A program made the translations under genes and the position numbers. The notes below the pieces were generated by a model. The model saw only the letters and a program-made list of their open reading frames with translations. It ran no database searches and had not been told where the DNA came from. A stretch of 64,000 nt of DNA from an uncultured Cryomorphaceae bacterium (GTDB lineage: Bacteria > Bacteroidota > Bacteroidia > Flavobacteriales > UBA7430): the NCBI GenBank assembly GCA_964516765.1, contig CAZEWZ010000001.1:72755-136754 (forward strand), read 5' to 3'. How positions within the stretch are numbered: the stretch's first letter is position 1; each line of letters begins with the position of its first letter. This document shows positions 36,292 to 46,301 of the stretch, in pieces.

Positions 36292-37053
36292 TTATTGAAT
36301 CGAAAGTAGAATACTTTCTTTTTGATTCCTAGAATAAAAACGAATGAAGTAAGTACCCTTTTCTAGATCAGATAAATCTAGAGGGGTTTCATTAAGGTTT
36401 TCTCCTTTAGAATAATTTAGAAATCCACTTTTTATGACCTTTCCTAAAATGCTCAATACCTCATAATTAGTTTCTCCATAAGCGTGTCGAACTCTTAATT
36501 TTCCAGATGTTGGATTTGGGAAGGCTGTAATTTTCATCTTTTCCTCTATAGGTTCGATTGTCATTTCATTGAGTTGATTTTCAATTGCTATACGTATTGG
36601 ATCAAAAGTGATATTTACATCGTTTTCATTGAATAAAATACGATGATTTAGTCCTCCTACGACTGTTACTTTTGGCATTCCATCTTCTCCATAATCACTC
36701 ATGCTAATGTCCTCAGAAGAAAAAGAAACATGGTTTTGCATATTATAGTCTTGCGCCCAATCACTAATATATGTACATGATGAATTAGCATAATCATCAA
36801 TCAGATAGAAATGTACTTTATTAGGATGACTTTCAGAAAATGAATGAGCTGCTAAATATGCGGGTTGGGTATAAATAGCGCACGGATTACAGGGCATTAC
36901 CCAGGCCATTACAATGATTGATCCCCCGTCTAATTCTGAAAATAAATGGTGTTCAATACCATCACAATCGCTGACAGTAAAATCTGTGGCTATATTTTGC
37001 CCAAAAGCAAGTATAGGAAAGATTAATAATAGGTAAAAGTAGATTTGTTTCAT
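36292..37053 (-). CDS. T9SS-sorted secreted protein with a thioredoxin-like CxxC N-terminal domain
   Basis: 253 aa with a signal peptide. Has a WVMPCNPC motif in a TlpA-like context. The C-terminal approximately 80 aa match the Por secretion tail pattern (AFPNPTSGKL...LDLSDLEKGTYFIRF). Confidence 0.72.
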   Translation of the reverse strand: MKQIYFYLLLIFPILAFGQNIATDFTVSDCDGIEHHLFSELDGGSIIVMAWVMPCNPCAIYTQPAYLAAHSFSESHPNKVHFYLIDDYANSSCTYISDWAQDYNMQNHVSFSSEDISMSDYGEDGMPKVTVVGGLNHRILFNENDVNITFDPIRIAIENQLNEMTIEPIEEKMKITAFPNPTSGKLRVRHAYGETNYEVLSILGKVIKSGFLNYSKGENLNETPLDLSDLEKGTYFIRFYSRNQKESILLSIQ

Positions 37054-37694
37054 GATTCAAAGGCATTAAAAAATTCAACTTTTCCGGATTCAACATCATA
37101 GATACTCCCAATCATTTCTATTTGCTTAGATGCGAGTAATTCTCGGATATCTTCGCTCTGTTTTGGGATTTCTTGAAGAACATGCTTTACATTTTGAATA
37201 GTTACAGAATAAATAAAGGACTCTTCCGTTTCATTTTTTTTGTTTTTTACTTTTTGGATAGCTGGATGTATTTTTTCTAATAATTGTGTAATATGTCCTG
37301 ATTCAATACCAGCACAGGCGCTATTGATTGCTCCACAAGCAGTATGGCCCATCACTACAATCAGCTTGGAACCTGCAAACTTAGTTGCATATTCAATGCT
37401 TCCAAGCACATCATCACTAACGCAGTTTCCAGCTACTCGAGCGTTAAATATATCACCAATTCCCTGATCAAAAACAATCTCTGATGGAACTCGAGAGTCT
37501 ATACAGCTGAGGACAACTGCGAATGGATATTGTCCCGACTTAGTCATTTCAATTTGCATTGCATAGTCTCTTTCAATTGGAGATGCATCAATAAAGCGCT
37601 GGTTGCCTTCTTTTAATATGTTTAGTGCTTTTTTGGCAGTCATAGTTGACAGAGAACCAGCGGTTTGAGTTTTAAATTTCATAGCGTATTTCAT
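37050..37694 (-). CDS. Beta-class carbonic anhydrase
   Basis: 214 aa. Has SCIDSRV and GHTACGA zinc-ligand motifs. Its stop overlaps the next gene's ATG (ATGA). Confidence 0.9.
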   Translation of the reverse strand: MKYAMKFKTQTAGSLSTMTAKKALNILKEGNQRFIDASPIERDYAMQIEMTKSGQYPFAVVLSCIDSRVPSEIVFDQGIGDIFNARVAGNCVSDDVLGSIEYATKFAGSKLIVVMGHTACGAINSACAGIESGHITQLLEKIHPAIQKVKNKKNETEESFIYSVTIQNVKHVLQEIPKQSEDIRELLASKQIEMIGSIYDVESGKVEFFNAFES

Positions 37695-37781: not shown

Positions 37782-38066
37782 CTATGATAGCTCTGGAGGT
37801 GGTAAAGGTTGTCTCAGACAAATTCCGTAATTTATTGTGGTTTCTGATTGATGAATTTGGTTGTTTAAAAACAGATTATCAAGAAGCGAAATGAAAAAAG
37901 AACTTAATTGTTCAGATTCTACTTCATTAGGTTCTTCATTTTCTATTTCTACGAATTCGACTAAAGAATCATAGAATAGATAACTAATATTACCAGAATT
38001 CGATATTATTCCACTAAAAATAGTGCAAATGATTAAAAACAGAGAAAAAAAACATTTAAATTTCAT
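37782..38066 (-). CDS. Hypothetical small secreted or membrane protein
   Basis: 94 aa with a hydrophobic N-terminus and an acidic middle. I do not recognise the family. Confidence 0.35.
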   Translation of the reverse strand: MKFKCFFSLFLIICTIFSGIISNSGNISYLFYDSLVEFVEIENEEPNEVESEQLSSFFISLLDNLFLNNQIHQSETTINYGICLRQPLPPPELS

Positions 38067-38343: not shown

Positions 38344-39822
38344 TCACAAATTTTTCAAGTATTTATCCGCATTGAGTAGGTGCTGAGATTTTTTTTCGGG
38401 ACTCATTTTTTCGAAAGTATTAATCAGCATAGATAGTCTTGGATTTTTTCTCATCAAATTTCTATGTTTGTCCATAAATCTCCAGAAAAGACCGTCCCAA
38501 ATTTCAGCCCACTCTCCTTTTTTATAATCACTCATTTTAACTATGTAATTAGACCCACTAATATATGGCTTGGAGGCAAAATAGCCTCCATCAGCGAATT
38601 GACTCATGCCATAAACATTGGGAACCATTACCCAATCATAAGCATCTATAAAGAGCTCCATAAACCAACGATATACCTCGTCTGGGTCAAATTCACAAAG
38701 GAGCATGAAATTCCCAATAATCATTAATCTTTCTATGTGATGGCAATAGGCATGCTTTATTACTTTTTTTATCGAATCGTCAAGCGGGACAATACCTGTG
38801 GTTCCATCATAAAAGCTCGAAGGTATTTTTTTCTTGAATTCAAAGCTGTTTTTGGTTCGCGAAGCAATTCCCTTGACTTCATACATTCCACGTATAAATT
38901 CTCTCCAACCAACAATTTGTCTGAGAAATCCTTCTATTGAATTGAGGGGTACCTTATTCTTTCGACCAAAAGATAACGCTTCAGTTATGAGTTCTTTTGG
39001 TTGGATTAATCCCACATTTAATAGTGGAGAAAGAATACTGTGGTTTAGCCAAACTTCATCGCTAACAATTGCATCTTCATAAGGACCAAATTCATTAAAT
39101 CGCTTTAGAAGAAATTCTTCAATCCAATGATGAACTTGATTTCTTTCAAAGGGATAAGAAGGCTTTTCGGGAAGCTTTCCAGGGTTCTTTGGGAAATGAG
39201 TTTGGACATAGTCTATTGCTGATATCCAAATCTCATTACTCTGAAGCTGTGGTGTTGGGGGGGGGGTTTTTGTTTTGGGATACTTTCTTCTATTATCTGC
39301 ATCATAGGTCCATTTTCCTCCTTCGGGTTGGTCATTTTCATCGATAAGTAACCGATGTTTTATTCTTTGGAGTTTGTAGAATGAAGTTTGAAAAAATTTC
39401 TTTTTTTGGATTTTGAAAAAAGATTTTAGATCTTCTCTATCATTAATAAATAAGGGGTTTTCATATTCCTTAACGGGTATCTTGTATTTTTCTATGGCCT
39501 TATTTATCCTTCTTTCTAGCCAGCAATCTGTGGGATTGATATAATGTAAGGTGAAAGGCCTCTCTTTTTGACTTTCACAGAGAAAGACACGAATATCAGA
39601 ACGTTTTTCGGTACTAGAGATATACTCCAAATCAATCTTTCTAGATTGAAGATCTAGAAAATAAGCCTTCATACTCGCTCGATGAAATGCTAGCTTTTGT
39701 TTATGAAAATTAAATTCTTTAAAGAAAAGGAATTCTTCGATTAAGAACAGTTGGTCACATTTTTCATGTATTTCATGATTTAAAAATAATTGATGTGGAA
39801 ATAATATTCCTATATGTTTCAT
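38344..39822 (-). CDS. Cryptochrome/photolyase family protein, 'photolyase-related' (COG3046, PhrB/CryB-like) subclass
   Basis: 492 aa. The N-terminus [13 protein letters not shown] is typical of this subclass. Also present are LSP.LN.G, GWREF.RG, HHIERLM..GNF and FADGG..ASKPY.SGSNY...MSDY. The start ATG overlaps the DUF2256 stop (ATGA). Confidence 0.85.
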
Positions 39823-40031
39823 AAGTCATTTATGCTTAGTTTGTTTCTCCGACACCGTTCACTGCAATAACGAACATCTTTCCAATTTTTTTCCCATTTT
39901 TTTCTCCAATTAAAGGGTCTTAAGCAAATTTTACAAATTTTTTGTGGCAAATTTGATTTTGAATATTTCTTGTCTTTAATCAAACTGTAATTGTTTTTTT
40001 CCGTGTTTCCAAAACTTAAAAAAAGACCCAA
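39819..40031 (-). CDS. DUF2256 zinc-ribbon protein
   Basis: The C-terminal part reads [32 protein letters not shown]. The ATG at 40031 would overlap the upstream ORF by 56 nt. An in-frame TTG at 39981-39983 gives a 54-aa product and overlaps it by only 8 nt, so it may be the real start. Confidence 0.7.
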
Positions 40032-41073
40032 TTTCTTCTGGGGCTTCGAAAAGCCATTCTCGTGCTTCTTCTGTGCCGCTGTATTTGTGATTGAACGGAT
40101 GTTCTTTGTAGATAATTTCCGAAGAGTTACAATGTGCTTTTAGTTCAGAAAATTCTCCCACAAATACCTTTATGTTTGGGATATTATTTTTTAGTAACAT
40201 CATAAAGTCGATGCAGTTTTTGTTGATCGGATACTCAGAGAATATACTCGGTTCCAAGAGTAAGATTCGATTTGTATCTTCCTTTTTATGCCAATAGGGG
40301 TCTAGATTATAATAATTGTATATGAGAGTTTTTTTCTCGGGGTCTATTTCTGGGAGTTCTGACTTTGGTAATGGAGATTTTAAAATAAATGCCTGACTTT
40401 CTAAGAGTATTTTGGGGATAGTCAAATTTGGAAATTCTTCGTAAGGTATATCAATAAAAGTGTCCTGTTGTTGGGTGAAAAAGAAGGTGTTTATATTGTC
40501 TTGGTTAGCATAGTATTTTTTGCTAGAATTTGAGCCTGCAACCCATTGCCAGCTCAAAGCGTTCGAACCCCAGTCTCCATCTAAAAGTTGGCTATACATC
40601 CATTTTGCAGGAATGAGCCAATGAGAATGTGCTACATTACAAGCTATCGAGCTGACATACATACGCATATGGTTGTGTAGGTATCCATGATCTTTAAGAG
40701 CTACTATTTCTTGGTCTACTGCAATAATCCCTGTTTTTCCATCTACGATACTCTTTGGGATTAAATAGTTCGCGATCGGAGCTTGCGTTTGTTTAATGAA
40801 ATGGTTAATAGCTTCTTTTTTACTGCACCAAATACGTTGCCAGAAATCTCTCCAAGTGAGTTCTTGCACTAATTTCTCGATTTGACTAAAAGGTAATCCT
40901 GAGCTAGATATTTCTTTAAATACTCCTTGTGTAGAAAGAACACCTCTTGATATATATGGCCCCAGATAGGTGAGCTGTCCATCTTTATAATTTCGGGTTG
41001 AGGCATATTTTCTGGGATCAATTTCTTTAACTTTACGTTCAATTTCATAAAGAGAGGTGGGGAATACAGTCAT
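39976..41073 (-). CDS. Photolyase-like flavoprotein with inverted domain order (FAD-binding domain N-terminal)
   Basis: 365 aa. Residues 1-215 carry photolyase FAD-domain motifs (Y...RN......[47 protein letters not shown]). No preceding alpha/beta domain is present. A roughly 150-aa alpha/beta-like extension follows instead. Confidence 0.75.
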
Positions 41074-41116
41074 AATTTTTTATGATTCAATTGCAAAGCT
41101 AAGGAGAATTAAGCTA

Positions 41117-42613
41117 TTATTTATGTTTTTTATTTCTAGGTTTTTTGGGACGAACATGAACCCCCAAGAGTCTAAGAGACTCTTTCTTTACTTCGGGATC
41201 TTTTTTTAATGCCCATAATTTATCTCTGTTTGGAAGCTTTCTTTTTTCAGGGTTAACTATGGGGGCAGGATAGTTAAGTTTAATTTGTCCTCCCAGTAAA
41301 TCGATTGGAGTAAGCATCCATGGTTGGTGGATAAAAGCCAGGGGCAAATCTCTTAGTTCGGGAACCCAACTGAGAACAAAGATACCATCGGAATCTTTTT
41401 CTAGAGATTGCTTGACCGGGTTGTATATCCTGATTGCATTTATTCCAGTGACACCTGCCTGCATTTGAAATTGTGTATAGTGGATGCCTGGTTCGTAGTC
41501 CAAAAATAATTTTGCCATGTGATAAACTCCTCTTCTCCAGTCTTGGTCGAGATAATGACATAAAAAAGAAACCAGCATAGCCCGCATCCGAAAGTTTAGC
41601 CAACCTTTGTGATGCAAACATCGCATACTCGCATCAACCAATGGAAATCCCGTTTCTCCAGCCTTCCATTTTTCAAGGAATACATTATTATTTTCATAAG
41701 ACATTTTTTCATATCCTTTGTTGATACAATAGGATTCATAAGTACAGTCTACTTCAAACTTTTGGATAAAGTGAGATCTCCATTTTAGTCGGGATAAAAA
41801 AGAATCATAGGCTCGTTTTTGACTCTGATAATTTGGGGCGGAACGAACAGATTGATAAGCCATTCTGACGCTGAGATTTCCCCAAGCAAAATATGGGGAA
41901 AGTCTTCCGCATGATATACTACTTTTTTGAGGGCTAGAAATTTGTCTGGAATAGTTTTTGGCTCTTTTATTAATAAAAGATTTGAGATATCTCATAGCAT
42001 AACTTTCACCAGCAGGTTGAAATTGAGGGGGATATTTAAGTAGGAAAGGGAAGTTTTTGAGATTAAAATCAAAAGGAGATTTTATAGATTTATGGGTGCT
42101 TATACTGAATTTATTTTTGAATATTTCTTGATTTGTATAAAGGTACCATCTCTTGTCCCAACCCACTCTATTATTGATTCCTCGAATAATTCCTTCGGTT
42201 TGGAACTCCTTCCATTTCACACCTTTTTTTTTGAATAATGAAGAAATATTTTTATCCCGATTCCAAGTGATTTTAGTTCCACTTTCTTGATGTGAAAATA
42301 CATTTTTTAGTTTGTATTGTGAGATTAAAAATTCAAAGACTTCTTTTGCCTCTCCGTGAAATATTTGAATATCTCTATTCATCGGCTCCAGAAACTTATT
42401 CATGTCTAGGAGCGAATGATAAACAAACTGAAGATGTCTTTTACTTACATCTTTATGGATGATAAGTGAGGGTTCAAACAGGTAAACAATCAGATAGTCC
42501 TCTTCCTGACTTTCTGCCTGAAATAAGGCTTCATGGTCTGAAGTTCTTAGGTCCCTTTTTAGCCAAACAAGATTCATTTGATTCAATAGAATTTTTTTTA
42601 CAAAAATACGCAA
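41117..42613 (-). CDS. Cryptochrome/deoxyribodipyrimidine photolyase family protein (canonical topology)
   Basis: 498 aa. The N-terminal alpha/beta domain reads LVWLKRDLRTSDHEAL. The FAD domain has LSPYFAWGNLS, GW.NFRMRAM..SF and LDYEPGIHY.QFQMQAG. The real start is probably the internal Met at 42577 (MNLVWLKRDLR). Confidence 0.88.
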   Translation of the reverse strand: MRIFVKKILLNQMNLVWLKRDLRTSDHEALFQAESQEEDYLIVYLFEPSLIIHKDVSKRHLQFVYHSLLDMNKFLEPMNRDIQIFHGEAKEVFEFLISQYKLKNVFSHQESGTKITWNRDKNISSLFKKKGVKWKEFQTEGIIRGINNRVGWDKRWYLYTNQEIFKNKFSISTHKSIKSPFDFNLKNFPFLLKYPPQFQPAGESYAMRYLKSFINKRAKNYSRQISSPQKSSISCGRLSPYFAWGNLSVRMAYQSVRSAPNYQSQKRAYDSFLSRLKWRSHFIQKFEVDCTYESYCINKGYEKMSYENNNVFLEKWKAGETGFPLVDASMRCLHHKGWLNFRMRAMLVSFLCHYLDQDWRRGVYHMAKLFLDYEPGIHYTQFQMQAGVTGINAIRIYNPVKQSLEKDSDGIFVLSWVPELRDLPLAFIHQPWMLTPIDLLGGQIKLNYPAPIVNPEKRKLPNRDKLWALKKDPEVKKESLRLLGVHVRPKKPRNKKHK

Positions 42614-42645
42614 GGCTATGCAAAGTAAGTTAAGTAATGTAAATA

Positions 42646-43026
42646 TTAATTACAACAAAGTTGACATGTTCCCTGAATCAAGACATGTGAGTGGCTTATT
42701 TTTCGATGAGGTATTTTAGGGATATGTATTTCAAAGGGTAGGCAGTCCATTTTCCCACAAATCAAACATTGAAAGTGTGGATGAACATCTATGTGTTCTG
42801 TATCAGAGCAACCAATGCATTTTGCATACCATCTGATTCCATTTTTACTCAGAAAAGAGTGTAAAACCCCATCGTCTTCTAGTTTTTCTAAAACACGGTA
42901 AATGGTAGTCTTGTTTAATTTGTTGCTTAAACGTTTGACCAATTCAATAGCGGATATCCCACCATCTTCTTTAATAAACTCACTCAACAATATTTCGACC
43001 GATTTGGTCATTCTGATAATCCCCAT
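42646..43026 (-). CDS. Fur-family transcriptional repressor
   Basis: 126 aa. Has a winged-helix N-terminus (TTIYRVLEKLEDDGVLH) and C-terminal metal-site CxxC pairs (CIGC, CLIC, CQLCC). Confidence 0.85.
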   Translation of the reverse strand: MGIIRMTKSVEILLSEFIKEDGGISAIELVKRLSNKLNKTTIYRVLEKLEDDGVLHSFLSKNGIRWYAKCIGCSDTEHIDVHPHFQCLICGKMDCLPFEIHIPKIPHRKISHSHVLIQGTCQLCCN

Positions 43027-43037
43027 TTATTTTTTAT

Positions 43038-43090
43038 TACAACTTTGTTGCATCTAATTTAATACATATATTTGCAACTGAGTTGCGTTA
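43038..43090 (+). promoter_or_regulatory. Bipartite promoter/operator module, copy 1 (upstream of the MerC-domain gene, inside the divergent fur-like intergenic region)
   Basis: The sequence is TACAACTTTGTTGCAT-N13-TATATTTG-CAACTGAGTTGCGTTA. It holds two CAAC-N3-GTTG palindromes. The second overlaps a perfect Bacteroidota -7 box TAnnTTTG at 43067-43074. Confidence 0.55.
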
Positions 43091-43104
43091 ATAAATGATA
43101 ACTA

Positions 43105-43509
43105 TTGATGAAATTAACATTACTTAAATCTGATGCCCTAGGTATTTTTGCAAGTACATTGTGTATGATACACTGTTTGGCTACGCCATTTTTGTTTATT
43201 GTGCAATCTTGTAGTTCTAGTTGCTGTGAATCAGCCCCATACTGGTGGAAGGCATTTGATTTTGGATTCTTAGTGTTTTCATTTTTTGCGGTTATTAGAT
43301 CTGTAAAAACCTCTTCCAATAAATTAGTCAAAAACCTATTATGGATTTTGATGATTACACTTTTTTTGATCATATTAAATGAAAAAAATACAATTATTGT
43401 TTTACCAGAATTTATGAAATATATAGTCGCCTCTAGTTTAATTTTTGTGCACTTATACAATTCTAATTATTGTCAATGTAAAAATAAAGGCTTTTGTTTA
43501 AATAATTAA
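43105..43509 (+). CDS. MerC domain-containing membrane protein
   Basis: 134 aa with 4 TM helices. The first helix carries ASTLCMIHCLATP (C..HC). The likely true start is the ATG at 43108. Confidence 0.72.
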   Translation: MMKLTLLKSDALGIFASTLCMIHCLATPFLFIVQSCSSSCCESAPYWWKAFDFGFLVFSFFAVIRSVKTSSNKLVKNLLWILMITLFLIILNEKNTIIVLPEFMKYIVASSLIFVHLYNSNYCQCKNKGFCLNN

Positions 43510-43670
43510 AGTAATTGATTCTAACACCTCTATTAAGTAAAATTCATACCCTCATATTTTTGAAGTTTTCTTCCAAAATATCATTCTACTTATTAATTAT
43601 ACCATCAGCTATTAATCTATATTTTTTCACTTAATAAATTATGAAAAGTATTGTTTTATATATTTTTTAG

Positions 43671-43725
43671 TACAACTTAGTTGCATTAGTGATTTAATGT
43701 ATATATTTGCTACAAAGTTGCGTTA
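43671..43725 (+). promoter_or_regulatory. Bipartite promoter/operator module, copy 2 (upstream of the TonB-dependent receptor)
   Basis: The sequence is TACAACTTAGTTGCAT-N15-TATATTTG-CTACAAAGTTGCGTTA. It has the same architecture and near-identical sequence to 43038-43090. The -7 box lies at 43702-43709. Confidence 0.55.
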
Positions 43726-43795
43726 GTTGATTCTTGATTTATTCTAGGAGACTATTTCAAGAATTCACTATGATGTTTTTTACACTCAATAAATT

Positions 43796-45991
43796 ATGAA
43801 AAAACTCATTTTCATTTTTTTTATACCTCTATTCATTAATGCTCAATCTTTCAGAGTAATTGATAAAGAGTCCAAAGAGGTTATTCCTTATGCATCTGTT
43901 GAAGTTCATGAGATGCAGATTCAATCTATGTGTGACGAAAATGGAGCTTGTGATATCAAGATTATTTCTAGGAACAGTCCAATACTTGTTTCTGCAGAAG
44001 GATATGAATCAAAGAGTTTTATTTACAAACCCAAAGAGTCAAACATTCATTTAATTGAGCTCGAAAAGGCTCATATTATATTGAATGAAGTAATCATTTC
44101 TCCGACCACAGGAATCATTCAACAGCATAACTTATCCAATGTGTTTTTGAAGTCTATTTCTTCGCCTAATCAATTAATAACCTCTAATCTAATGGGAATT
44201 ATTTCAAGTGTTCCTGGAGTGTATTCGATTCAAACAGGAGCGGGAATTAGCAAACCTGTCATTCGGGGAATGTCGGGGTTAAAAGTAGTGACTTTTTTAA
44301 ATGGTCTTCGTATCGAAAATCAGCAATGGGCAAATGATCATGGAATTAATTTTAGTGGTTTGGGAATAAAGGCTGTTGAGGTTGTAAAAGGTCCTTCTTC
44401 ATTGCTATACGGTGCTGATGCATTGGGTGGTGTTTTGTATTTTGTCGACGAAGATTACGTGAGTCCCAACACTGTCCAAAGTTCTTTTGAAACTCAGTTT
44501 GAGAGTAATTCGCTTTCTACCAGAAATATAGCCAATCTAAAAATAGCTTCAGAAAAGTTTAGGTTGAATGTCCATGCGGGATTTCAAAACGCTGCAGATT
44601 ATCAAATTCCTAACGGGACTTTCGTCGTAAATTCTAGGTTTAAGGGTAAAAGTATTAAGACTTCTTTGGGTTACAATAAAGACAGTTGGATGGTTAATCT
44701 TAGATACAATCACAATTCTAATCAAATAGGTCTACCTGGTCATACACATTCAGCCAACCCTAACCCTTATGACTTTCAGTCAAGCGTTCAAAATAGATAT
44801 AGAGTGGTTCCTTTTCAGCTCATTTCAGACCACTATTTGTCTCTAGAAAATAAGATATTTTTTGGTAATTCGGTATTAAAATTACTTACAGGATTTACTT
44901 CAAACAGTCTCACAGAACACGAAGAAAAGGTGACTATTCCGGGCATCAAAATGCTTCTAACAAATTTCCCGTATCATCTTTCATATACCACTCATTTTAA
45001 TGAGGATATAACGTGGATTTCAGGAGCACAGGGGATGTGGACCAAAAATATTAATGATGATTCAGCTCTAAACATCTTGATTCCTAATTCTACTTCTAAT
45101 GATTATGGTGCCTATTCTCTTCTTCAGTATTCTAAAAGTCAATTTGAAACCCAAATAGGATTCAGATATGATTACCGAGAAATCAATTCAAATCAATTTA
45201 TTTCGAAAATTTTTTCTAAACTAAATGGATCTTTTGGTCTTGTGTATCAAAAGAATTCTTTCACCTTAAGATCTAATTTTAGTTCTGGATTTCGTCCTCC
45301 CCACTTGAGCGAAATGCTTGCCGATGGTGTCCATCACGGAACCAACAGATATGAAATTGGTTCCCAAGATTTGGTCAGCGAATTTGCTAATCAATATGAT
45401 GTGTCATTAGATTATAAATCTGAACATGTTAACTTTAATATGAATCCTTTTTATAATAGTTTTAAAAACTATATTTTCGTTGAGCCCACAGCCGATTTCA
45501 TTGATGGCTATCCAGTCTATGTCTATTCTCAGGCACCTTCAGCTAAGACATACGGGGGGGAAGTATATTTTCATTACCATCCTCATTTTGTTCATAGAAT
45601 TCACATAGAAAGTGATTTTTCATATGTAATTGGACAAGACAATAACAATAACCCTTTACCTCTAATTCCTCAAACCAGAATGAATACGAATATAAAATAT
45701 GAATTTGGTGAACAAAAAAATAAGCTTAAAATCCAGACACTAATTTTTCAAAGAACTGAGTATTTAGACAAAGATGATGTGTCTTCTTTCGAATCAAGAT
45801 CTTCCCATTACCAGATTTACAATGTGGAAGCAAACTTTTTGTATCAAGCGAAACAATTGACGCGCATTAAGTTAGGTGTGAGGAATTTGTTTAATACTAG
45901 ATATATCAATCATTTATCAAATTTAAAAGGGATTGGCTTGCCAAGCCCTGGGATTAATTTTTATTTTTCAATCAATTATTTAATTAACTAA
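43796..45991 (+). CDS. TonB-dependent receptor
   Basis: 731 aa. Signal peptide, a CarboxypepD_reg-like N-terminal domain, a plug (GMSGLKV...NG.R...Q...DHG) and a C-terminal barrel ending in an aromatic residue region. Confidence 0.9.
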   Translation: MKKLIFIFFIPLFINAQSFRVIDKESKEVIPYASVEVHEMQIQSMCDENGACDIKIISRNSPILVSAEGYESKSFIYKPKESNIHLIELEKAHIILNEVIISPTTGIIQQHNLSNVFLKSISSPNQLITSNLMGIISSVPGVYSIQTGAGISKPVIRGMSGLKVVTFLNGLRIENQQWANDHGINFSGLGIKAVEVVKGPSSLLYGADALGGVLYFVDEDYVSPNTVQSSFETQFESNSLSTRNIANLKIASEKFRLNVHAGFQNAADYQIPNGTFVVNSRFKGKSIKTSLGYNKDSWMVNLRYNHNSNQIGLPGHTHSANPNPYDFQSSVQNRYRVVPFQLISDHYLSLENKIFFGNSVLKLLTGFTSNSLTEHEEKVTIPGIKMLLTNFPYHLSYTTHFNEDITWISGAQGMWTKNINDDSALNILIPNSTSNDYGAYSLLQYSKSQFETQIGFRYDYREINSNQFISKIFSKLNGSFGLVYQKNSFTLRSNFSSGFRPPHLSEMLADGVHHGTNRYEIGSQDLVSEFANQYDVSLDYKSEHVNFNMNPFYNSFKNYIFVEPTADFIDGYPVYVYSQAPSAKTYGGEVYFHYHPHFVHRIHIESDFSYVIGQDNNNNPLPLIPQTRMNTNIKYEFGEQKNKLKIQTLIFQRTEYLDKDDVSSFESRSSHYQIYNVEANFLYQAKQLTRIKLGVRNLFNTRYINHLSNLKGIGLPSPGINFYFSINYLIN

Positions 45992-46004: not shown

Positions 46005-46301
46005 ATGTTAAAAAACTCATTTTCTTTTAAAAAACTTGGATTGTCCATTGGACTTGTCCTTTTGGCTTCATGTAGCAGTGAAGAATGTGCCGACTGCCAT
46101 GTTGTTGTTGACATTGATGGTATGGAATATGAATTAATGGAATTAGGAGAGTACTGTGACGATGCTTTACATTCTGTCGAGGAAGACGGTTACGCTGTTG
46201 CCGATACTATTCTGGTGGATGCTGATGGAGGATTACTTCCAAGCCCAGTTTATCCTGGAGATCCTGTAGAGGTTCATTGTGGAGAAGAGCATGACCATTA
46301 G
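46005..46301 (+). CDS. Small acidic Cys/His-containing lipoprotein
   Basis: 98 aa with the lipobox LLASC. Has a CADCH motif near the N-terminus and HCGEEHDH at the C-terminus. It starts 13 nt after the receptor gene. Confidence 0.5.
   Translation: MLKNSFSFKKLGLSIGLVLLASCSSEECADCHVVVDIDGMEYELMELGEYCDDALHSVEEDGYAVADTILVDADGGLLPSPVYPGDPVEVHCGEEHDH

Follow-up and report, generated by a model that had tools for sequence, protein, structure and literature searches.

A Zur-like repressor gene beside a photolyase/cryptochrome cluster in an uncultured Cryomorphaceae bacterium: probably two independent units in chance adjacency

A 64-kb stretch of the genome of an uncultured Cryomorphaceae bacterium (contig CAZEWZ010000001.1; the whole stretch is called the window below) carries on its minus strand, from position 43026 down to 38344, a gene for a Fur-family repressor (here fur) followed by three genes of the cryptochrome/photolyase family (CPF) and a gene for a DUF2256 zinc-ribbon protein. 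The original prediction made the repressor the lead gene and possible regulator of this run; control of photorepair by metal or peroxide sensing would be a new regulatory logic, and gene order alone warrants no such claim. Comparison with related genomes and metagenomes suggests, with a probability of roughly 0.8, that two ordinary and independent units lie side by side, a Zur-type divergon and a standard CPF module with a promoter of its own. The proposed link between metals and photorepair most likely reflects nothing more than a chance gene order, and no evidence for a selected regulatory connection between fur and the CPF genes was found in this comparison.

The gene run and the reach of its linkage

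The five minus-strand open reading frames (ORFs) are all present in series where they had been placed, and Pfam assignments agree with the identities given to them:

42646-43026, minus strand: Fur-family repressor, putatively Zur-like, 126 amino acids (Pfam FUR 27.2 bits, cutoff 23.1, residues 4-94)
41117-42577 (ORF to 42613), minus strand: canonical-topology CPF protein, NewCRY-like (Pfam DNA_photolyase and FAD_binding_7)
39976-41073, minus strand: inverted-topology CPF protein, NewPHL/SPL class, Bacteroidetes type, 365 amino acids (FAD_binding_7 at residues 69-189 only)
39819-40031, minus strand: DUF2256 (PF10013) zinc-ribbon protein (Pfam 72.8 bits, cutoff 25)
38344-39822, minus strand: CryPro/FeS-BCP-type protein (COG3046, DPRP; Pfam DPRP PF04244, 175 bits)

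Conservation of the linkage was examined from both sides, with neighbourhood genes called by a simple longest-ORF routine. For the regulator, one genome was taken per species and the best 80 of 208 genome matches were kept (59-72% identity; loci L001-L080); for the CPF genes, a metagenome scan with a NewPHL alignment gave at least 493 CPF loci, of which the best 80 were kept, 77 of them outside the lineage of the window. In none of the 80 species loci is the regulator gene followed directly by CPF genes on its strand, and the 8 kb around the NewPHL cluster contain no Fur homologue at any of the 77 loci outside the lineage; the linkage that a regulator-headed operon would call for is conserved in neither set. 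Only one of the 80 (L070, from Urechidicola) has CPF genes within 8 kb, and these are 2.8 kb away and convergent; the two Dokdonia regulator loci (L014 and L027) have no CPF genes nearby.

Within the lineage of the window, contigs were obtained from the scan (L088-L090, of which L088, 99-100% identical, comes from the window's own organism) and from exact-protein look-ups (L081, L082, L084-L087). Seven of them contain the regulator gene (L081, L082, L084, L086-L089), while L085 and L090 hold the CPF part only. All seven keep the adjacency (Fur 86-100% and NewPHL 75-99% identical), the receptor and MerC genes reading away from the regulator on one side and the canonical CPF gene following it on the other; the longer contigs add NewPHL, DUF2256 and DPRP genes, in that order. 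In a relative at comparable distance (L083; receptor 74% and Fur 73% identical) fur is followed by a convergent Lcl_C gene, and CPF genes are missing. Because the linkage is missing from all 80 regulator loci, all 77 CPF loci and L083, the adjacency is read as a single lineage-specific rearrangement, in which the first two CPF genes would also have exchanged places. The comparison of neighbourhoods that had been proposed thus finds the arrangement kept in the window's own lineage but not beyond it, and the conservation in related genomes on which the original prediction had staked itself is essentially absent.

The CPF genes themselves form a familiar module. The statement that CPF clusters are known in marine flavobacteria is amply borne out: three tandem CPF genes of Dokdonia MED134 (MED134_10201-10211) are reported to form a predicted operon whose expression rises in the light (bioRxiv 10.1101/2023.12.25.573297), the presence of several photolyase/cryptochrome genes in marine flavobacteria has long been known (PMC3595038), and the same module recurs at the 77 metagenome loci. 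As in Dokdonia, the CPF genes of the window belong to different classes, including a DPRP-type protein, and stand in tandem on one strand; unlike the Dokdonia operon, they lie directly behind a Zur-like gene. The 77 loci (50-57% identity) typically have the order DUF2452, DUF2805, NewPHL, canonical CPF, DPRP, sometimes with an added flavin-reductase-like or amine-oxidase-like gene. The window departs from this usual module in that the canonical CPF gene precedes NewPHL instead of following it, and in that the head genes are missing, no DUF2805 homologue being present in the window and DUF2452 likewise being absent. The rearrangement would thus have placed a marine-Bacteroidota module (NewCRY-like, NewPHL/SPL, DUF2256 and a CryPro protein without Fe-S cysteines) directly downstream of the regulator gene, and the same or a related event would have swapped the NewPHL-then-NewCRY order and removed the DUF2805 head gene.

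Operators, promoters and the gap before the CPF genes

On its other side the regulator gene faces a divergent set of genes and control elements:

43036-43095, plus strand: promoter/operator module 1, in the fur-merC spacer, with two palindromes and a -7 box
43105-43509, plus strand: MerC-family membrane protein (Pfam MerC 65.6 bits; ATG 43108 is the likelier start)
43668-43730, plus strand: second copy of the promoter/operator module (module 2), before the receptor gene
43796-45991, plus strand: TonB-dependent outer-membrane receptor (Pfam Plug and TonB_dep_Rec_b-barrel)
46005-46301, plus strand: small protein of 98 amino acids with a His/Cys-rich C-terminus (HCGEEHDH), the ORF after the receptor, with no Pfam match

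Module 1 consists of a palindrome ACAACTTTGTTGC (43039-43051), a -7 box TATATTTG (43067-43074) and a palindrome GCAACTGAGTTGC (43074-43086), and module 2 repeats it (CAACTTAGTTG at 43673-43683, -7 box TATATTTG at 43702-43709, GCTACAAAGTTGC at 43709-43721), the two being 81% identical across ~65 nucleotides (nt). In this layout a CAACnnnGTTG palindrome is followed after ~16-18 nt by the -7 box, and the second palindrome shares the final G of the box. Against an expectation of 0.51, the window has four copies of CAACNNNGTTG, all of them at the fur-MerC-receptor locus. The -7 consensus of Bacteroidetes, derived from Bacteroides and Flavobacterium promoters, is TAnnTTTG. At 63 of the 80 species loci a MerC homologue is divergent from the regulator gene and adjacent to it, across a spacer that, as in the window, usually measures 78 nt. 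CAACnnnGTTG is found in 60 of these 63 orthologous spacers; two palindromes at a distance of 38 nt are the usual arrangement, and a TAnnTTTG box adjoins each of them. The motif appears in the 200 nt upstream of fur at 72 of the 80 loci, with 121 matches overall (7.6/kb, compared with 0.02/kb elsewhere in 1.15 Mb, a difference of ~375-fold). The operator-like palindromes that had been noticed in the fur intergenic region are accordingly a conserved feature of it. The regulator's own conserved operators face the MerC and TonB-receptor genes, and its conserved partner is MerC and not the CPF cluster. At the 77 CPF loci, operator motifs occur at background density (0.015/kb) and never upstream of the cluster head.

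A zinc-responsive divergon is proposed, in which the 126-residue repressor would bind GCAACnnnGTTGC palindromes that overlap the promoters (-7 box TATATTTG) of merC and, in the duplicated copy, of the receptor gene; the metal-bound repressor would switch off these genes and probably its own gene too. The spacer between merC and the receptor gene is expanded to 286 nt in the window (43510-43795), and the corresponding spacers of L081, L084 and L086 are 60-105 nt long and have no module 2. Module 2 would be a recent duplication giving the receptor its own repressible promoter. In the fur-merC spacers of the same three contigs (L081:2990-3095, L084:4724-4828, L086:5908-6014) the fur-proximal palindrome is lost and the merC-proximal one alone is left; the window still has the pair. 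Of the usual TAnnTTTG box immediately before the fur ATG, L084 retains TATATTTG, and in the window, L081 and L086 this box is degraded.

The junctions of the minus-strand run were confirmed by direct reading. The gap after fur is 32 nt if the canonical CPF gene starts at TTG 42613, and 68 nt if it starts at ATG 42577. The canonical and inverted CPF genes are separated by 43 nt. The overlap of DUF2256 with the end of the latter gene is 56 nt if DUF2256 begins at TTG 40031 and 8 nt if it begins at TTG 39983, and DUF2256 and DPRP share an ATGA overlap (39819-39822). ATG 42577 is taken as the start of the canonical CPF gene because a 1-nt indel puts the upstream TTG (42613) out of frame in L081 and because the relatives use a homologous ATG or GTG; TTG 42613 was rejected on these grounds. 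For DUF2256, TTG 39983 is more likely as the start than TTG 40031; in L084 and L086 the matches homologous to DUF2256 begin past the NewPHL stop codon.

Three elements in and around these junctions bear on how the CPF genes may be transcribed:

42653-42663, no strand assigned: operator-like CAACAAAGTTG (ATTACAACAAAGTTG) within the 3' part of fur, formed by codons for C-Q-L-C-C and lying 76-86 nt before the CPF start codon
42578-42608, minus strand: putative CPF promoter and leader, with the -7 box TATTTTTG at 42608-42601 and a leader ending in ATTGAATCA before ATG 42577
41094-41101, minus strand: second -7-like box TAGCTTTG, a consensus match 21 nt upstream of the inverted-CPF start

The gap after fur measures 68 nt in the window and ~110 nt in L086; in L081 and L084 it reaches 114-116 nt. 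The sole block conserved among these four is CTTG(C/A)(G/C)TATTTTTG...ATTC(T/A)ATTGAATCA, directly before the start codon; outside the conserved pair CTTGnnTATTTTTG...ATTGAATCA, the gap has indels of ~46 nt or is unalignable. TATTTTTG fits the TAnnTTTG consensus, and at ~0.4 matches/kb/strand the probability of a chance match in 68 nt is ~0.03. Because this box with its leader is the only part of the gap conserved in diverged relatives, an independent CPF promoter in the fur-CPF gap is predicted; it is the favoured, though not a proven, arrangement. The box at 41094-41101 is possibly an internal promoter before NewPHL, and a TAnnTTTG box occurs at the canonical CPF/NewPHL junction of L084 and L086 as well (TAATTTTG). 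The CPF module would accordingly be transcribed from the gap promoter (-7 box 42608-42601, ATG 42577), perhaps with a second promoter before NewPHL, and its induction by light would be expected on the strength of the Dokdonia report.

The palindrome at 42653-42663 was considered as a third operator, serving the CPF genes. It is not regarded as one because it is made by the C-Q-L-C-C codons of fur and is broken in three relatives of the lineage (L081 TCATCTTTGCTG, L084 CAACTTTGTTA, L086 TAATCTTTGCTA). The sole candidate for an operator upstream of the supposed target genes is thus a coding, non-conserved sequence.

Several observations nevertheless weigh against two fully independent units. In the window hairpin scan no terminator-like hairpin was found in any junction of the run, as had been noted earlier: terminator-like matches total 4, compared with 3.6 expected from shuffles, and the only two minus-strand hairpins (43010-42996 and 40042-40027) both lie within coding sequence. 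The fur-CPF gap folds no better than shuffles do (-7 kcal/mol, z = +0.86). The putative -7 boxes are consensus matches, and TAnnTTTG has a substantial background, with 107 matches per 128 kb of strand against 93.5 expected; no convincing canonical -33 TTG was seen by eye ~19 nt upstream of the box at 42601-42608. In the window's lineage fur itself has no clear promoter, the fur-proximal palindrome and the TTTG box known from other genera being degraded there. Finally, the adjacency has persisted although the proteins of the lineage have diverged to ~75-87% identity, and co-transcription is physically possible.

The question of a single transcript therefore sets the TAnnTTTG boxes at 42601-42608 and 41094-41101 against the lack of a terminator. 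Co-transcription of the run, which had been suggested from its layout, holds to the extent that the genes are tightly packed and that, with no terminator between fur and the CPF genes, read-through from fur is possible; the conserved -7 box suggests a separate promoter. A passive coupling has a real, if minority, chance of being correct, namely that the CPF genes have their own promoter and additionally receive read-through from the probably autoregulated promoter of fur, with a weak, lineage-specific, zinc-dependent part and no selected function. The short gaps along the whole run, the missing hairpin and the stability of the arrangement within the lineage are consistent with it. Against it, read-through would not be metal-dependent in L081, L084 and L086, where the fur-proximal operator is lost, and the sequence of the gap drifts freely, which argues against a selected function. 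In the preferred reading of two independent units, any transcriptional coupling would likewise be passive read-through and not a conserved regulatory design.

Other searches for shared control elements gave little. The leader 9-mer ATTGAATCA, present before both CPF starts, was rejected as a common signal because its count in the window is at chance (3 compared with 2.7), and it is retained solely as a component of the conserved block before ATG 42577. A sigma-70 promoter scan was set aside: it gave 21 matches against 26 expected, and Bacteroidetes promoters lie outside its models. No common 8-mer was found upstream of the CPF cluster heads at 41 other loci, where only scattered, locus-specific AT-rich palindromes were seen. 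Long AT-rich inverted repeats, for example TGTTTAACTATATTTACATATTGTTAAACA, surround a -7-like box at several DUF2805 cluster heads (L149, L140, L142, L163, L154, L131 and L095); that of L149 sits at ~10-40 of the upstream region, and the sequences of the repeats differ between loci. These could be candidate operators of another, perhaps light-responsive, regulator.

The regulator and its regulon

The regulator belongs to the Fur family (PF01475), scoring above the Pfam threshold, and its homologues carry precomputed PF01475 annotations. It represents a tightly conserved subfamily with more than 600 homologues that extends across the Flavobacteriaceae. In the homologue alignment the recognition helix NKTTIYRVL is invariant, as are 11 candidate metal ligands (C70, C73, H78, D80, H82, H84, C87, C90, C95, C121 and C124), which include the CxxC pairs C87/C90 and C121/C124 and the H78-D80-H82-H84 motif. 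The best solved-structure matches of the family profile, themselves weak (E 5e-6), are to Zur of S. coelicolor (3mwm and 7vo0).

The genes that continue from MerC or stand behind an operator in relatives indicate what the regulator controls. They encode GTP cyclohydrolase I (37 loci), COG0523/CobW proteins (21) and PhoX, a zinc-independent alkaline phosphatase (16), together with TonB receptors, His-rich DUF4625 lipoproteins and two unknown families. The latter two, of ~158 and ~165 amino acids, form part of a recurrent run after MerC in L001-L080. The GTP cyclohydrolase I in this run is a FolE-IA-type enzyme with a CEHH motif and not FolE2; its presence within a Zur-like regulon is unusual because the zinc-independent FolE paralogue is normally FolE-IB. 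Standard members of Zur regulons are COG0523 proteins, GTP cyclohydrolase I (FolE) paralogues and ZnuD-type receptors (PMC11672702); PhoX is not mentioned in that review. On comparative evidence, therefore, the regulator appears to control zinc-acquisition and zinc-sparing genes (COG0523, GTP cyclohydrolase I, PhoX, TonB receptors and DUF4625). No catalase, AhpC, Dps, siderophore or haem-utilisation genes were found among the operator-linked genes of relatives, and the regulon of relatives contains no genes for responses to light or reactive oxygen species (ROS).

Since the regulon content is zinc-type and the best solved-structure matches are Zur proteins, the regulator is described as a putative Zur-like zinc repressor. 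Like the Zur divergons of S. coelicolor (Zur) and M. tuberculosis (FurB), the locus encodes a small winged-helix repressor of the Fur family that has CxxC pairs along with a His-rich sensing motif, its palindromic operators overlap the promoters of metal-uptake genes, and the regulon in relatives holds COG0523, TonB receptors and a paralogue of GTP cyclohydrolase I. The regulator departs from known Zur proteins in its very divergent sequence (Fur/Zur models score 27-29 bits), in an additional CxxC (C70/C73), in being constantly paired with a MerC-family membrane protein, and in its operator GCAACnnnGTTGC, which differs from the AT-rich classical boxes of Zur and Fur. The comparison thereby yields an operator (two GCAACnnnGTTGC sites 38 nt apart) and a regulon for a Zur-like repressor of the Flavobacteriaceae. 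A literature search on Zur and MerC in "Flavobacter" found nothing relevant.

The metal sensed is less firmly placed than the operators, zinc being assigned as the effector from regulon content only, and the curated protein models do not help: the NCBIfam Zur equivalog PRK11639 gives 16.5 bits against a cutoff of 167, and the NCBIfam models of Fur, Zur and PerR all give 16-21 bits, far below their equivalog cutoffs. The regulator might then be a PerR- or Fur-type sensor of peroxide or iron, with light-driven oxidative stress as its natural signal, and Pfam and NCBIfam do not separate the types. The receptor of the window, which is ZnuD/haem-receptor-like, scores slightly higher on a haem-receptor model (NCBIfam TonB-hemin, 147 bits) than on that of ZnuD (134 bits), and it stays under every curated cutoff, these two included. 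A PerR or Fur identity was nevertheless set aside as less likely on regulon content, and a peroxide or iron sensor is unlikely here, given that the operator-linked genes are of COG0523, GTP cyclohydrolase I, PhoX and His-rich lipoprotein families and that the best structural-sequence matches are Zur proteins. The receptor is syntenic in L081, L083, L084 and L086, and in these four a gene for 98-102 amino acids occupies the same position after it as the 98-residue ORF of the window.

If the regulator is Zur-like, a real Zur-dependent transcript may have arisen in the window's lineage through the move of the CPF module behind the regulator gene and the disappearance of any terminator, so that zinc status, in addition to light, would act on the CPF and DUF2256 genes; such a newly evolved coupling, caught early, is improbable. 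Improbable too is the arrangement as originally predicted, with the fur gene as first gene and regulator of a five-gene operon that couples photorepair or photoreception to metal or peroxide status: in its favour are the common strand, the 68-nt gap without a terminator, the adjacency in seven lineage contigs and the operator-like ATTACAACAAAGTTG upstream of the CPF start in the window, but among the 80 regulator and 77 CPF loci compared the linkage does not occur outside the lineage, the conserved operators face MerC with none before the CPF genes, the extra palindrome is a coding sequence broken in relatives, a conserved -7 box lies within the gap, the regulon elsewhere is zinc-type without light or ROS genes, and the recognition helix and all candidate ligands are as in orthologues, giving no sign of a new function. 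Of literature on photolyase and the Zur regulon, only a Rhodopseudomonas draft-genome report came up, apparently unrelated, judging by title and abstract.

The CPF proteins and neighbouring genes

Aligned to E. coli photolyase (1dnp), the canonical CPF protein has R in place of E274, F in place of N341, H in place of N378 and F in place of W382, and it scores below every NCBIfam cutoff for photolyases, DASH proteins and plant cryptochromes. NewCRY proteins, which include VcCry2, are canonical two-domain CPF members without the equivalents of E274 and N341 of E. coli photolyase (PMC7736829, Emmerich 2020). The protein of the window fits these residue criteria and is called NewCRY-like by its residues, as distinct from membership in a similarity-network cluster. 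The four substitutions imply that the usual substrate contacts are missing, together with the N5-proximal Asn and, from the electron-transfer triad, the proximal Trp; a role as photoreceptor, or as an enzyme of different chemistry, is more likely for this protein than one as a photolyase of cyclobutane pyrimidine dimers (CPDs).

The inverted-topology CPF protein, with 5390 homologues, belongs to the NewPHL/SPL class: its catalytic domain is N-terminal, residues 21-190 aligning to ~195-420 of canonical photolyases, and it has no antenna domain at its N-terminus and no PF00875 match. The class is described as CPD photolyases specific for single-stranded DNA, and its Bacteroidetes subgroup 'Ba' is reported to be without Fe-S cysteines (PMC7736829; PMC8476157, Xu 2021). 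The window protein resembles this class in its length of ~365 residues, within the class range of ~300-370, in having no Fe-S cysteines and in its co-occurrence with a bacterial (6-4)-type photolyase; its activity is predicted from sequence, and the characterised NewPHL/SPL members are alphaproteobacterial. The DUF2256 protein has the ribbon motif CKIC...CSERC, and no literature joining photolyase and DUF2256 was found.

Homology of the DPRP protein to PhrB, CryB and 9hnk (4dja, 3zxs and 9hnk; E 1e-72 to 1e-78) spans its whole length, and like the FeS-BCP/CryPro proteins PhrB and CryB it has the DPRP N-terminal domain. It differs from them in lacking all four [4Fe-4S] cysteines, the first being replaced by Pro and the CxxC...C segment being deleted in the alignment to 9hnk_A. 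The cluster cysteines are likewise missing from 32 of 32 marine Bacteroidota homologues (within L095-L163), so that every sampled CryPro-type protein of Bacteroidota is without the Fe-S cysteines that define FeS-BCPs, and a whole clade of FeS-BCP relatives appears to function without the name-giving cluster. No mention of such a clade was found in PMC7736829 or PMC8476157.

Downstream of the CPF run lie genes for a beta-carbonic anhydrase (37050-37694, minus strand) and a conserved ORF of 94 amino acids without a Pfam match (37782-38066, minus strand). Carbonic anhydrase paralogues belong to some Zur regulons; no operator was seen at the carbonic anhydrase gene of the window. Both genes are on the same strand as the run and are kept in those lineage contigs that are long enough to include them (L084-L087).

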